Made by a program: the position numbers and the translations under genes
Shown here: positions 41,071 through 47,126 of the stretch, piece by piece
Layout: every line of letters begins with the position of its first letter
Position numbering within the stretch: position 1 is the stretch's first letter
The notes under the pieces: model-generated
What the model was told of the DNA's origin: nothing
Database searches by the model: none
Seen by the model: the letters and a program-made list of their open reading frames with translations, nothing else
Origin: a virus
Lineage: Duplodnaviria; Caudoviricetes
Length of the DNA stretch: 52,016 bases
IMG/VR virus record: IMGVR_UViG_3300011438_000014
Span: 1 to 52,016 of that record
Reading direction: 5' to 3' (one strand)

Positions 41071-41354
41071 ACTCTTGCGAACACCCTGAATCTGAATTCG
41101 TGCCCACCCCTGAACTGATTCACCACGGCAAAAACGTGTGCGTTCAGTGCGGAGCATTCCTTGGCTGGGCGAAGAAGCCCGAGACGATTGAGAAGGAGAA
41201 GCGGAACGCCGCCATCTTGGCCATGCTCGAGACGCAACGGTTGACTGAGTGGGAAAAGGGGTTCGTTCTTTCGTTGGAGAAGCAGGGAAGGCATTTCTCG
41301 CCCAAGCAACAAGAAACTCTCGACAACATCAATCTGCGCTATGGCTACACCTGA
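41067..41354 (+). CDS. Small zinc-ribbon hypothetical protein
   Basis: HHGK..CVQCG.FLGW; LTEWEKGFV.SL...SPKQ. Confidence 0.7.
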   Translation: MNSCEHPESEFVPTPELIHHGKNVCVQCGAFLGWAKKPETIEKEKRNAAILAMLETQRLTEWEKGFVLSLEKQGRHFSPKQQETLDNINLRYGYT

Positions 41355-43206
41355 AGCCCCGTACATCCCGCAGAAAACTTTGGATGAACTGCACTCCAGT
41401 CACCCTGAAGGCACCCGGCACGCCGCGATGATCAAGATCGCGATGGCGCTTTTAGGGAATGGTTTTTCCGACCAAGCGGTGTTCGCGGAACTGCGGGCCA
41501 AGTTCGATGCGGAAAAAACCGACAAGGAAATCCGCGCTGTGATTTCGTGGTGCAGCGAGAAACACCCGACACCATCTGGGTTCGGAGCCAAGACCAACGG
41601 TCATCCTCCGAAGAAAATCCATTACGAAAAGAAAACCCGACCGGCATCAGCACCCGAGAACACCGACCAGTCCGCCGACCAGAAGGTCGATTGGTATTTG
41701 AACGGAAACACGACATCACTCGAACAGTGGAAGCAGCGCAGCAAGGTTTACTGGAGTGGCGACATGTCATCGGTCGCGTTCGAGAACCTGTACGCGCCCG
41801 ATGACAACATCAACATCGTGTGCCAGTTCACGGTCAGCGAAAAAGGAAAAGCGAATCCCAAGGGCGGTGGTAAAACTCTAGCGCGCGACGAGTGGGTGAA
41901 GTGGTTCAAAACGAAAGGCATTCCGCGCTCCGAGGCTGGCGCGTGGATTCGCATGAACCCCTGCTCGGACACGGGCACCGGCAAAGGTGGCGCCATCCAG
42001 GATTGCGACATCCAATCCTTTCGCTACCTGCTGCTTGAAAGCGACGTGCTCTCAGTCGAGCGCCAACTTTCACTTTACGCCCGGTTGAAATTGCCTATTG
42101 CCGCCCTGCTTTCCAGTGGTGCCAAAAGCATTCATGCCTGGATCAAAATCGCCGCGGCCACCAGTGAGGCTTACACCGAGAACGTCCTGAGAATTCTTTC
42201 GGCCCTGAAGCCGTTTGGGTTCGACCAGAGCAACAAGAACCCTTCGCGCCTGTCACGCCTGCCAGGAGCCAAGCGCGGTATCGGAGCGGTCGGAGACGGG
42301 TTGCAGCAACTCATTTACCTGAATCCCGCCCCGGAAATTGTTTTAGATGACGAGGCGCTGACTCGGTTTGAAATATCACTTACTGTTCCCATCCCTGACT
42401 GCAAACCCCTGAAGAAGCTGGCTCGTGAAACGCGCGCCCGCTACGAGGACATGCACGCTAACCAAGGAAAACTCGGAGTGCGGGTCGGCATCAGGGATTG
42501 GGATCGGGATACTGGTGGGTTCAAAGGGAAGCAGATGACAGTGCTGGCGGCTGGAACCGGAGCCGGCAAAAGCAGCATGGCCCTGAACCTGATCAACGGC
42601 GCCCTGAAAACCGGCCACGGCGTTGCGTTGTTCACTTTGGAAATGGACCGGGAAGAAATCTTCGACCTGCTTCTGTCCATGAATCACCGCATCAATCGCA
42701 ACTTGTTCAACACGGGCTGCTTTGAGGTCGATGACGTGGAACGAATCGATCAAGGGCTGGCCGCGCTGGAAGATAAACCTCTCTGGATTTATGACGAAGC
42801 GATGCAGACCGTCGAGTCAATCGGTGATCGCATCAAAGCGTTGATTGGGCAGATTGGACTCGTCGTCATCGACTACGTGCAGATTGTGACCCCGGATGAT
42901 CAATGCGCTCCACGGGAGCAGCAGGTGGCAGACATTGCCCAAGGCTTTCGGATTCTTGCCAAGGACACCAATCTTCCGTTCATCATTCTTTCCCAGGTTA
43001 GCGACGATGGAAAATTACGCGAGTCACGAGTGGTTGGTCATGCGGCCCACACTGTTCTCATGTTGGAACTCGATGATGAGAATGATGAGAAAGCCCTTTT
43101 GAAAGTGGTGAAAGGAAGGCGCATCCCAAAACGAAAATATCACCTGCGCTACGAACCTGAGTACTGCATCATTGGCGATGAACCACTGACTGATTTACCA
43201 TTGTAG
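41341..43206 (+). CDS. Primase-helicase fusion (PriCT-like, AEP/RepB-like primase and DnaB-like SF4 helicase)
   Basis: LLESD, SGAKSIHAW and NPSRLSRLPG (primase); AGTGAGKS, FTLEM, IDYVQ, LSQ and LRES (DnaB). Confidence 0.85.
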   Translation: MATPEAPYIPQKTLDELHSSHPEGTRHAAMIKIAMALLGNGFSDQAVFAELRAKFDAEKTDKEIRAVISWCSEKHPTPSGFGAKTNGHPPKKIHYEKKTRPASAPENTDQSADQKVDWYLNGNTTSLEQWKQRSKVYWSGDMSSVAFENLYAPDDNINIVCQFTVSEKGKANPKGGGKTLARDEWVKWFKTKGIPRSEAGAWIRMNPCSDTGTGKGGAIQDCDIQSFRYLLLESDVLSVERQLSLYARLKLPIAALLSSGAKSIHAWIKIAAATSEAYTENVLRILSALKPFGFDQSNKNPSRLSRLPGAKRGIGAVGDGLQQLIYLNPAPEIVLDDEALTRFEISLTVPIPDCKPLKKLARETRARYEDMHANQGKLGVRVGIRDWDRDTGGFKGKQMTVLAAGTGAGKSSMALNLINGALKTGHGVALFTLEMDREEIFDLLLSMNHRINRNLFNTGCFEVDDVERIDQGLAALEDKPLWIYDEAMQTVESIGDRIKALIGQIGLVVIDYVQIVTPDDQCAPREQQVADIAQGFRILAKDTNLPFIILSQVSDDGKLRESRVVGHAAHTVLMLELDDENDEKALLKVVKGRRIPKRKYHLRYEPEYCIIGDEPLTDLPL

Positions 43207-43245
43207 TTGACCTCCGCTGCCATTTCGCTACAAAAGCAGCACGAC

Positions 43246-43779
43246 ATGAATCACGACACGGCCACTCGTTACGAAAATTTCGTCCGCAAGCTGGTGGGCA
43301 GCTACACCGAGCACCCCGACATCCTCCAGGTCACAGCCCGTGAACGCGCCGGCACGGTGGCGGTCGTCATCACGCCGGCCCCAACCGATTTTGGGAAGGT
43401 GCTGGGCAAACAGCGCAAGGCTTTAACGGCTTTGGAAGTGTTGCTCTGCTGCATGGCCAACCTCGAAGGGGATCGTATCTCCGTGCAACTGATTGAGCCC
43501 GAGAACCGGATGAACAACCGGCGCGTACCGGAGATTCTGAATCCGCGATGGAGTGATGCTGATGACAAGGAGATGGCAGGGCTGCTTTCGGAAGTTCTCG
43601 ACAAGACCCTGCGGCTTGACGCCGAAATCGTGATCAAGCCGATGTCGGGTGAGACGATGCTGACGATCGTGCCACAAAGCCATGTTCCACCGGACGTGAT
43701 CGGAGCGCTGCACACAATCTTTCGCGCGGTGGGTGCGACAAAAGGAAGGCGCCTGGTCGTGAACGCAAGGACGCAATGA
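43246..43779 (+). CDS. KhpA-like RNA-binding protein with tandem KH-type domains
   Basis: LVGSYTEHPD.LQV...DFGKVLGKQRKALTAL matches the KhpA/YlqC pattern; the second half repeats the fold without the GxxG loop. Confidence 0.75.
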   Translation: MNHDTATRYENFVRKLVGSYTEHPDILQVTARERAGTVAVVITPAPTDFGKVLGKQRKALTALEVLLCCMANLEGDRISVQLIEPENRMNNRRVPEILNPRWSDADDKEMAGLLSEVLDKTLRLDAEIVIKPMSGETMLTIVPQSHVPPDVIGALHTIFRAVGATKGRRLVVNARTQ

Positions 43780-45161: not shown

Positions 45162-45270
45162 AGGTGAAGTGAAGCCTTACTTTTCAGCCAATCCTTTCCG
45201 TTTAAAAAATGAAATTCGTCGTTTGTTCCTAACTGATTCTTCTGTCTTTGAGTTTGAACTCAAGCGCAAC

Positions 45271-45588
45271 ATGAGAGCACGCATCAAACCCATCTCCGGC
45301 AAACTCGCCGCCGCCAGTCGCATCTACAACGAGCGCGTCAAGGTGTGGCTGGTCGGGAAACAGTGCGCGGTGTTTCACCAGTTGCCGGCGACTCAGTGTC
45401 ACCATCGCTTCGGAAGACGCGGACGGCTGCTGCTCTGGGAACCAGGATGGTTGCCAGTGTGCGATGCAGGACATGCGCTCATTCACTCCACCCCGAAGGC
45501 TTCCATCACTCGTGGTTTCATCGGCCCTGTGGGCACGTGGAACGATTACGAACGCGCGAAGAAATACGTGGAGGCCAATGAGCCTTGA
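45271..45588 (+). CDS. Small HNH-fold nuclease-like protein
   Basis: C...ATQCHH..GR.G......WLPVC..GH..IH; start may be 45169. Confidence 0.65.
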   Translation: MRARIKPISGKLAAASRIYNERVKVWLVGKQCAVFHQLPATQCHHRFGRRGRLLLWEPGWLPVCDAGHALIHSTPKASITRGFIGPVGTWNDYERAKKYVEANEP

Positions 45589-45949
45589 AAGCGACCTCGA
45601 AGCAAAAGGGTGGATCAGGGACAGCGTCGGCAATTGGAGTCACCCCAGCCGCGTCACTGATGCTGTCGGTCGTGGGGATCGGCAACGTGCCAAGCTTCAA
45701 AAACACCAAGTCGATCGGGCGCAACCGAAAAACCGGAAAGCCGCGCATCTTCACAAACCCAAAAAAGAAAAAGTGGATGGAGGCGTGCATCAGCAGTTTC
45801 ATGTCTCAATTGCGTGGCGCGTATCCGACGCTCGAAAACGTGATGCGTGGGGAATGTCCGAAACTATTGCCGACTGCATCGTGTCTGCCACTCGACGATT
45901 CCTTGGACTGGATGATACCCGGATCTCAAAGCGTGGAGCGCGTCGCTAA
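45578..45949 (+). CDS. Overlapping frame B carrying the central RusA-like motif
   Basis: FHVSIAWRVSDARKRDAWGMSETIADCIV resembles VxIxxxxPDxRRRDxDNxxKxxxDxL. Confidence 0.5.
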   Translation: MSLESDLEAKGWIRDSVGNWSHPSRVTDAVGRGDRQRAKLQKHQVDRAQPKNRKAAHLHKPKKEKVDGGVHQQFHVSIAWRVSDARKRDAWGMSETIADCIVSATRRFLGLDDTRISKRGARR

Positions 45950-45989
45950 AGGACTTGAAGGAGCCATCATCGTAATCACCCCGTTATGA
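45585..45989 (+). CDS. Overlapping frame A carrying the N- and C-terminal RusA-like motifs
   Basis: VPSFKNTK...KWME at the N-terminus and LDDS...V.KG.EGAIIVITPL at the C-terminus; lacks the RRDxD segment. Confidence 0.6.
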   Translation: MKATSKQKGGSGTASAIGVTPAASLMLSVVGIGNVPSFKNTKSIGRNRKTGKPRIFTNPKKKKWMEACISSFMSQLRGAYPTLENVMRGECPKLLPTASCLPLDDSLDWMIPGSQSVERVAKGLEGAIIVITPL

Positions 45990-46636
45990 CTCTCAAGCAA
46001 TGCACAATATGTCGCACGCTCAAATCCCTGAACATGTTCAGCAAGGATAGGCGCGCAACTGACGGACGGACATCGGGTTGCTTGGCCTGCTACCGTAAAC
46101 AGTCCAAAATTACATATCAAAAAAATCTAAAACAGTATCGTGCAGTGAGGCGCGCTTACGCCAAATCCCACCAAAAGGAAGCCAACATCCGAAGCAGGAA
46201 GCACTATCTAGCTAATCGCGCTGCAATCATCGTGCGCACCACCGCATACCGTAAGGCTAATCCAGACGTGCACAAAAGAGCGTGGCAGAAGTGGTATAGC
46301 AATAATCGAGAAAAACGACGAGACATCGAGAGGCGTTATCGCAAGCTGAACCCGATAAGGATGCGAGGACACGGCCGGAAGCGTAGGGTCAGAATGCGTG
46401 CAGCGTGGGTTGAGAATGTTGACTACCCTGCACTGTTAAAACGATTTGGTATGTGGTGCTACATCTTCCAGAAATCCATTCGTCGGCGTTCCCAACTTCA
46501 CTTTGATCACGTAATTCCCATTTCTCGCGGAGGCTCTCACTCCAACGATAATGTTCGCCCCGCGCACGCGCTTTGCAACATGAAGAAACACGCCAAACTT
46601 GGTTATGACGCTTTCAGTGGCCAAAAACAAAGCTGA
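45986..46636 (+). CDS. HNH endonuclease with N-terminal zinc ribbon
   Basis: KQCTIC...CLAC; HFDHVIPISRGGSHSNDNVRPAHALCN. Confidence 0.9.
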   Translation: MTLKQCTICRTLKSLNMFSKDRRATDGRTSGCLACYRKQSKITYQKNLKQYRAVRRAYAKSHQKEANIRSRKHYLANRAAIIVRTTAYRKANPDVHKRAWQKWYSNNREKRRDIERRYRKLNPIRMRGHGRKRRVRMRAAWVENVDYPALLKRFGMWCYIFQKSIRRRSQLHFDHVIPISRGGSHSNDNVRPAHALCNMKKHAKLGYDAFSGQKQS

Positions 46637-47126
46637 CGAAATAGTCGGCTTGCTGACTCCGTTTTGCATCCCCGGTCATTGCATGGTCGTTGGGAGCGTA
46701 CGTCGATGCGTGCCAGAACCTCGTGATATTGAGGTCGTAGCTTGTCCAGACCTCGCCAACCAGAATCATTTCGATTACACGGTGAACCTGCTCAAGTCCG
46801 GCCGCATCGGGGTGGTGCAGAAAGGAATGTTCCCAGCACGCTACACCCAATTAATGGGAACCATCTGCAATGTGGACATCTTCTGGTGCGATAAAAGGAC
46901 GTACGGGTTGAACTTATTCATTCGGACGGGCTCAGCGCAGTTCGCAAAAGACGCACTCGTCCATTGGAAAAAAATCACCAACGGCGGTTACAGCGAGGGC
47001 GCCATCCTCCACCTGGCCGACGGCACACCTGTCCCGACACCGACTGAGCAGGTAGTGTTCGAGGCGTTGAAATGCAAGTGGGTTCCGCCTGAGAAGAGAA
47101 ATCGACCTATGAGGGAGGACTCGTGA
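46605..47126 (+). CDS. Minimal DNA polymerase X (palm and thumb only)
   Basis: GSVRR....DIE, VDIF, RTGS and TEQVVFEAL..WVPPEKR. Confidence 0.85.
   Translation: MTLSVAKNKADEIVGLLTPFCIPGHCMVVGSVRRCVPEPRDIEVVACPDLANQNHFDYTVNLLKSGRIGVVQKGMFPARYTQLMGTICNVDIFWCDKRTYGLNLFIRTGSAQFAKDALVHWKKITNGGYSEGAILHLADGTPVPTPTEQVVFEALKCKWVPPEKRNRPMREDS

Follow-up and report, generated by a model that had tools for sequence, protein, structure and literature searches.

The RusA-like domain of a phage gene family is divided over two overlapping reading frames and is probably reassembled from two chains

How can a RusA-like Holliday junction resolvase be made when its motifs are spread over two overlapping reading frames, neither of which holds them all? 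This question is raised by the window, i.e., the whole stretch of DNA analyzed here, a linear virus record of 52,016 bases taken in full with a completeness of about 67%. The sequencing runs containing most of the stretch are freshwater-sediment metagenomes, and no RNA dataset was listed among the 13 runs matching it. Two ORFs, called A and B in the following, overlap on the same strand by 365 nt with B in the -1 frame, as described by an earlier sequence-only reading of the window, and all motifs quoted there for both frames were located in the sequence. That reading offered two routes to an active enzyme: programmed frameshifting, possibly -1 and then +1, or complementation between two overprinted polypeptides. 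It also pointed to starts of both frames near a GGAGG, which was found at 45570-45574, 3 nt ahead of the ATG of B and 10 nt ahead of the TTG of A, and to an A_AAA_AAG heptamer in frame A, which is likewise present. The coordinates of the pair and its neighbors are collected in Table 1.

Table 1. Features of the split pair and of the neighboring genes, in positions of the window
Feature	Position	Strand	Description
Primase-helicase gene	41341-43206	+	upstream of the pair
KH-domain gene, phage KhpA/KhpB type	43207-43779	+	PF13083 3e-9; replication arm, upstream of the pair
Upstream ORF, 139 aa, weakly HNH-like	45169..45588	+	phrog_740 HNH E 0.13; stop overlaps the start of A (TTGA); outside the pair
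Shared initiation region	45570..45588	+	GGAGG, ATG of B, TTG of A, TGA of the upstream gene
ORF of chain B, 123 aa from ATG	45578..45949	+	-1 frame relative to A; passenger N-terminal part, then RusA strand, Arg loop, D70, helix
ORF of chain A, 134 aa from TTG	45585..45989	+	alternative ATG 45660; RusA-like front and back, passenger linker between
Front module of frame A	45663..45812	+	first strand, G-x-VPSFKNxK, hairpin, KWM helix; A conserved, B variable
Motifs of frame A	VPSFKN 45687; KWM 45771; LPLDD 45885; KGLEG 45948
A_AAA_AAG heptamer	45761-45767	+	in frame A; Lys-rich in both frames
Catalytic module of frame B	45797..45901	+	FHVSIAW strand, SDxRKRD, TIADC helix; frame A is linker here
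Motifs of frame B	VSIAW 45803; RKRD 45833; TIADC 45863
D70 equivalent in frame B	45842-45844	+	within SDxRKRD
Trp at the D72 place in frame B	45848-45850	+	RKRDAWG of the window
Back module of frame A	45885..45989	+	LPLDD, KGxEG, last strand
DD in frame A	45894-45899	+	D90/D91 equivalent
HNH endonuclease gene	45986..46636	+	PF01844 6e-10; phrog_1035 endonuclease VII 4e-20; ATGA overlap with the stop of A
Stand-alone 175-aa protein, DNA polymerase beta thumb domain (PolX-like)	46599-47126		PF14791 3e-7

The pair is located in the plus-strand replication arm of the window, where Pfam and PHROG searches also placed a methyltransferase gene downstream of it. The HNH gene that follows, with its match to the endonuclease VII family, could encode a second junction nuclease or a homing nuclease, and could do junction work in the phage of the window. 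The neighbors differ from locus to locus, with the two frames staying together next to various helicase, exonuclease, Erf, HNH, and methyltransferase genes (69 of 102 flanking ORFs scanned). The genes neighboring split loci have replication and recombination functions.

Frame A returned 13 full-length homologues at 44-65% identity in a word-index search and 351 clusters at E<=1e-10 in an exhaustive search. Frame B is seldom annotated as a gene, with 2 and 7 proteins found. A DNA search with A alone identified 18 loci in viral records, 49 in metagenomes, and 2 in genomes. In all 18 viral loci the -1 frame is open and carries the motif S-D-x-R-x-R-D-x-D-G-x-x-S-T-x-x-D-C, with the third frame closed. 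The same motif is open in the -1 frame, again with a closed third frame, in 42 of the 51 loci from outside the viral set (two cut by contig ends), and the remaining nine (L062-L070), which represent three distinct complete sequences, have all modules in one frame and a closed -1 frame. A DNA scan with the PSFKN motif only, blind to the middle of the gene, gave 50 hits. Family members account for 15 of these, 14 of them distinct and 2 new, and every one is split. The set used for counting comprises 43 split loci including the window, with a median pairwise identity of 43%, after removal of the nine single-frame loci, identical copies, one truncated locus, and seven loci of at least 85% identity; as the 43 loci are related, counts over them are not independent trials. 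The split first noticed in the window extends to its homologues, both frames being open with the same division of motifs in each of the 43 diverged loci.

Matches to the family in MAGs were limited to one scaffold of Verrucomicrobiota and one of Ca. Methylomirabilota, and no others occurred in genome samples of 401, 401, and 301, which overlap mutually. A set of 50,697 cultured-phage records held no match to A of the window or to the B protein of locus L018. Two frame-A proteins (P0035 and P0073) continue into long tails, which may result from lost stops or fusions and which presumably resemble SSB and a helix-turn-helix domain.

Along the 43 loci, conservation passes from A at the front to B in the middle and returns to A at the back. 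Among 19 hand-chosen pairs, front identity was 0.62 in A and 0.37 in B, middle identity 0.47 and 0.72, and back identity about 0.6 and 0.3, respectively. Profiles of the three parts tile a single-frame relative in order, with the front of A on residues 2-44, the middle of B on 82-111, and the back of A on 115-144. Both the RusA-like identity and the distribution of its motifs over the two frames are upheld. Against profiles made from 32 RusA proteins, the middle of B reached an hhalign probability of 90-93 (E ~1e-6; 87-93 for the catalytic module), the parts of A alone stayed below 2, and a profile of the A-B-A mosaic reached 93.5-96. The profile of the middle of A aligned to nothing, in agreement with the view that this part is unrelated to RusA. 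The positions lying under the B Asp codons D84, D89 (D70 of RusA), and D99 (D80 of RusA) read T, I, or M in 142, 149, and 150 of 150 A proteins, respectively.

Of 50 B proteins, 21 matched the RusA-like phrog_34 at E<=1, with 9.7e-5 as the best value; the window's B is not one of these. The top PDB sequence match of the B profile was RusA 1q8r (E 0.1), with RRRDLDN aligned on RrrDadG, and an Atlas search with B returned nothing informative. No RusA was found in the PDB sequence search with the A profile. Pfam RusA (PF05866) matched neither the window frames nor 20 B, 30 A, and 3 single-frame proteins, and was absent from a six-frame search of the whole genome; PHROG gave no RusA match for either frame of the window.

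For a test at the level of single loci, A-B-A mosaics were joined with X at the joints and scored against three profiles. The mosaic exceeded both single frames in 37 of 43 loci against all RusA, in 36 against 12 short-loop RusA, and in all 43 against the single-frame relatives, with the reverse mosaic scoring about zero. For the window, the mosaic and A alone scored 4.5 vs 5.4 bits against the broad RusA profile, and 7.7 vs 6.3 and 36.4 vs 32.5 bits against the other two. The idea that a chimera should outscore the single frames is borne out in most loci, but not by the window's own mosaic against the broad RusA profile, where nothing is gained.

The AlphaFold2 model of A, computed with 150 sequences, has a pLDDT of 81 and shows the first and last strands, the hairpin, and a single long helix. 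Its middle is of low confidence (pLDDT 58-64), and the second strand-helix unit is absent. Its fold matches to RusA are weak. Foldseek ranked a phage RusA first in BFVD (probability 1.00, E 0.02, 54 columns, rmsd 1.7), 1q8r ranked second among 48,161 structures (Z 3.3, rmsd 5.8, 77 aligned), and the Atlas search gave RusA matches at TM 0.48-0.51. The four-stranded sheet and two helices are not found in one chain; their elements are divided between the two ORFs.

Selection for two open frames was assessed against a null in which one protein was held fixed and its synonymous codons were resampled over the 43 loci. Frame B has 0 stops over the front of A, where 63-107 are expected, and frame A has 0 over the middle of B, where 32-62 are expected, while control segments fit the expectation (101 stops vs 77-115 and 58 vs 49-69). 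The Phe codon of PSFKN is TTC in all 43 loci; TTT, which makes up about a quarter of the Phe codons in the genes of the window, would put a stop in frame B. The passenger parts are nearly free of amino-acid constraint, the fourfold-site difference of A being 0.66 at the front compared to 0.57 after the B stop. Open yet otherwise nearly free, they behave as expected of putative read-through linkers. The stops of B begin at least 5 codons past the first D of A's DD in the 43 loci. For the window alone, the chance of an open frame is 0.04-0.16 for B and 0.21-0.43 for A, which is not small, and the case for the double opening therefore rests on conservation.

By a fixed rule (ATG, GTG, or TTG), a start codon is available for A in 42 and for B in 41 of the 43 loci. 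An ATG of A ahead of the first strand occurs in 37 of 43, compared to 19.5 +/- 2.8 under the null (maximum 27 in 300) and 3 of 43 in frame C. When B starts were picked by hand, one was found in 42 loci, 22 of which read NTGA at this point. Over the 42 loci, the distance from the B start to the A start downstream is 4-82 nt. The exception, L055:45-326, is the only split locus without a common B start, having no ATG, GTG, or TTG, and may represent a rare start, an error, or decay. Both starts lie in weakly folded RNA, and Shine-Dalgarno signals are weak in most loci. At the N-terminus of B, upstream of the A start, a motif MPRWTxE(E/D)L recurs (L008, L014, L018, L019, L022, L043, and others), which may form a helix in B or act as an RNA signal when A is initiated.

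At the sequence level, the locus consists of two same-strand, out-of-frame ORFs with their own starts, both of them under selection. Of the two routes proposed at the outset, complementation of overprinted polypeptides agrees with these data, each frame being free of stops in 43 of 43 loci and having its own starts. We strongly infer that A and B are two separate chains and consider it likely that these, separately translated, assemble one RusA fold, with junction cleavage as the putative activity. Ribosomes would start at either of two start codons that are separated by a few bases and in many cases adjoin the stop codon of the gene upstream. The strand and helix of B would slot into the incomplete sheet of A, the middle of A being looped out, and two such A+B units would together correspond to the RusA dimer. 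D70/D72 of B and D90/D91 of A would make up the metal site, and the complex would work on branched DNA in phage recombination and replication. Taken as a whole, it seems rather more probable than its opposite that one domain is dealt A-B-A over two frames, in register with an unsplit homologue, and rebuilt as an A2B2 resolvase with a metal site from both chains, across hundreds of phage lineages and hidden from gene callers and profile searches.

In RusA, residues D70, D72, K76, and D90 are critical, D70, D72, and D91 form the cation site, and residue 70 of one E. coli RusA subunit contacts D91 of the other (PMC1636454, in part). The RusA site is thus already built from two chains. In the 43 split loci, frame B has D70 in all and R69 in 41, while the second D of A's DD is present in all and the first in 41, with E in the other two. 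D80 is nearly invariant as well. The D72 place is occupied by D in 35 loci, Trp in 5 (window included), and Ser in 3. The N73 place is Gly in all 43, and K76 is absent from all 43 (S30, E7, A3, T2, D1). As N73 and K76 are also missing in the single-frame relatives, both absences are family traits, and the invariant Lys in the FKN of A may stand in for the missing residues. A second DD seen in the window's frame B is not conserved as a pair.

The RRDxD segment that frame B had been said to supply is there in the form of RKRD with D70, but its second Asp is Trp in the window (RKRDAWG). The Trp-at-D72 clade, recognizable by RD[AGS]WGM[SA]ET, includes the window, L003, L022, L023, L024, and P0015-P0019. 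Its members are possibly inactive, or the site is possibly rebuilt using the Glu at the K76 place, and the cutting activity of the window's pair is therefore less certain than its assembly. The pair resembles RusA in the way its layout would work, and probably in function too. It nevertheless lacks several of the features by which RusA membership is judged, and the window's own copy is among the less canonical ones.

An alternative with a small but real chance is that both chains are made and their complex is not an active resolvase, at least in the clade with D72 replaced by Trp, acting instead as a junction binder or as a regulator or poison of another RusA. The absence of N73 and K76 throughout and of D72 in 8 of 43 loci, as well as the endonuclease-VII-like HNH gene directly downstream in the window, favor such a loss of activity. 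It is opposed by the near invariance of D70, R69, D80, and A's DD at a median identity of 43%, and by the lack of any other RusA to regulate, Pfam RusA being found elsewhere in none of 16 split-type phage records (9 of them at least 90% complete).

IS3-type elements use -1 frameshifting on A_AAA_AAG, and the sequence-only reading gave weight to this heptamer in the window. Slippage on this sequence is known from E. coli (PMC5009743, in part), and the 60 nt on its 3' side fold at -21.8 kcal/mol compared to -16.8 +/- 2.7 in base shuffles, forming a modest hairpin. At the column of the window, however, A_AAA_AAG occurs in only 2 of 43 loci, and slippery heptamers number 15 in frame A vs 8 and 15 in control frames. 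It precedes the conserved helix of A, and a shift at this position would drop that helix. No slippery heptamer, homopolymer run, or +1 motif is conserved at either junction in the 43 loci, and the A_AAA_AAG of the window is most likely incidental. Two further candidates were rejected as shift signals, since both follow from the encoded residues: TTT_CGA/AGA at the Phe-Arg of B (13 of 43) and CCC/TCC before the B stop or an Arg codon (12 of 43).

A single frameshift could make the second chain, either as full-length A plus a product of A-front and B-middle or by a 5' shift from one start, with products that complement each other. One -1 shift is the explanation given for Drosophila APC, where selection also switches 0/-1/0 and the zero frame provides a linker (PMC5009743, in part), and the modest hairpin 3' of the heptamer makes some shifted product possible in the window. 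We regard this origin of the second chain as improbable, since B is open up to its own start, which lies upstream of the A start, the ATG of A is enriched (37 vs 19.5 under the null), and no shift motif is conserved.

A double programmed shift, -1 into B and +1 back into A, would give one A-B-A polypeptide; it accords with the switch of selection from 0 to -1 to 0, with the mosaic as the best RusA-like sequence, and with the shiftiness of A_AAA_AAG in E. coli (PMC5009743, in part). Such a polypeptide would need neither the front of B nor the middle of A, yet no stop interrupts these unread parts in any of the 43 loci (0 stops vs 95-168 expected). B has its own start, and the heptamer is rare at its column, stands before A's conserved helix, and has no conserved counterpart at the junctions. 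The programmed -1 then +1 shift of the earlier reading is accordingly unsupported and very improbable.

The sequence itself was verified in four assemblies, of which X1 (possibly the source) and X2 cover the whole overlap and X3 (45563-46033) and X5 (45636-46150) a large part of it. They agree over the overlap with zero indels and one substitution, and no stop is created. The split layout is real and conserved, and both frames are under selection. That it is an artefact or recent pseudogene, in which compensating indels or sequencing error disrupted an ordinary rusA, is practically negligible: the single-frame relatives L062-L070 could be cited for it, but the four assemblies are concordant, the layout is common to 43 diverged loci, and the A family comprises 351 clusters with the RusA motif in frame in 0 of 160 A proteins.

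Homologues with all motifs in one frame, named beforehand as evidence against a split gene, do exist; they form one distant lineage only and give no pointer to a recent indel. The uncultured L062, L066, and L069 match phrog_34 at E 0.03-0.04 and share GxVPSFKN, KWM, DxDGxxxT, DDS, and KGxEG with the split forms, from which they differ in that one frame holds all motifs and the -1 frame is shut by stops. In a quick tree of 122 columns, the single-frame sequences cluster with the split ones to the exclusion of canonical RusA (SH-aLRT 99), with the single-frame branch being long and its position unplaced. No further single-frame relatives were detected in viral contigs beyond one 17-residue match. 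In the single-frame relatives, e.g., L062:1510-1950, about 35 additional residues follow the first helix and precede the middle strand, at the point of the frame switch in the split forms; this stretch may be the scar of a re-fusion or the original break site. As to the origin, two opposite indels may have displaced the middle, which was then rescued by a start in the displaced frame; otherwise, the single-frame lineage may have re-fused.

In known overlapping genes, the overlap originates when a new protein is overprinted on an existing one. In the split family, the two frames look like fragments of a single ancestral protein whose order on the DNA has been preserved. If this holds, translation starting in the displaced frame can rescue and fix two frame-shifting indels, and genes can thereby undergo fission and come to overlap in a way that is absent from the reviews searched. 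The split accounts for a large phage protein family of 351 clusters that has remained unannotated because gene callers mostly keep frame A, which matches no RusA profile, and drop the catalytic frame. The system is small, with two chains of about 120 aa and an established junction assay, and suggests looking for interleaved frames in other families.

In the freely accessible literature searched, neither a domain interleaved between two independently started frames nor a split RusA was reported, although the GeneTack cluster tables could list such a pair. The terms rusA and resolvase do not occur in the portions of PMC8788219, PMC5009743, and PMC3711429 covered. Overlapping genes with interacting products are known from 11 viral cases (PMC8227390, in part).

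Among known systems, E. coli RusA (prophage DLP12; 1Q8R; PF05866; phrog_34) is alike in element order, the Arg-rich loop, D70, the helix, the DD pair, and the setting in phage recombination and replication. It is one chain forming a homodimer (PMC1636454, in part), whereas in the window the elements alternate over two frames, and the split family differs further in lacking N73, K76, and any Pfam match, with Trp at D72 in the window. Frameshifting of the dnaX and IS3 type shares the A_AAA_AAG (PMC5009743 for dnaX, in part), but the heptamer of the window lacks conservation, and its position does not fit the point at which selection switches frame. In Drosophila APC, purifying selection likewise moves from frame 0 to -1 and back to 0, the middle of the zero frame serving as a linker; a single frameshift there yields products with a common N-terminus (PMC5009743, in part), while in the split loci the -1 frame stays open back to a start of its own and no shift site is conserved. 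In the lambda Rz/Rz1 spanins, one phage gene similarly sits inside another on the same strand in a different frame, and the two products form one complex (PMC6139136, in part), as is predicted for A and B. Rz and Rz1 are different protein types in two membranes (PMC6139136, in part), whereas A and B appear to be parts of a single domain, in collinear order, of which an unsplit homologue exists.
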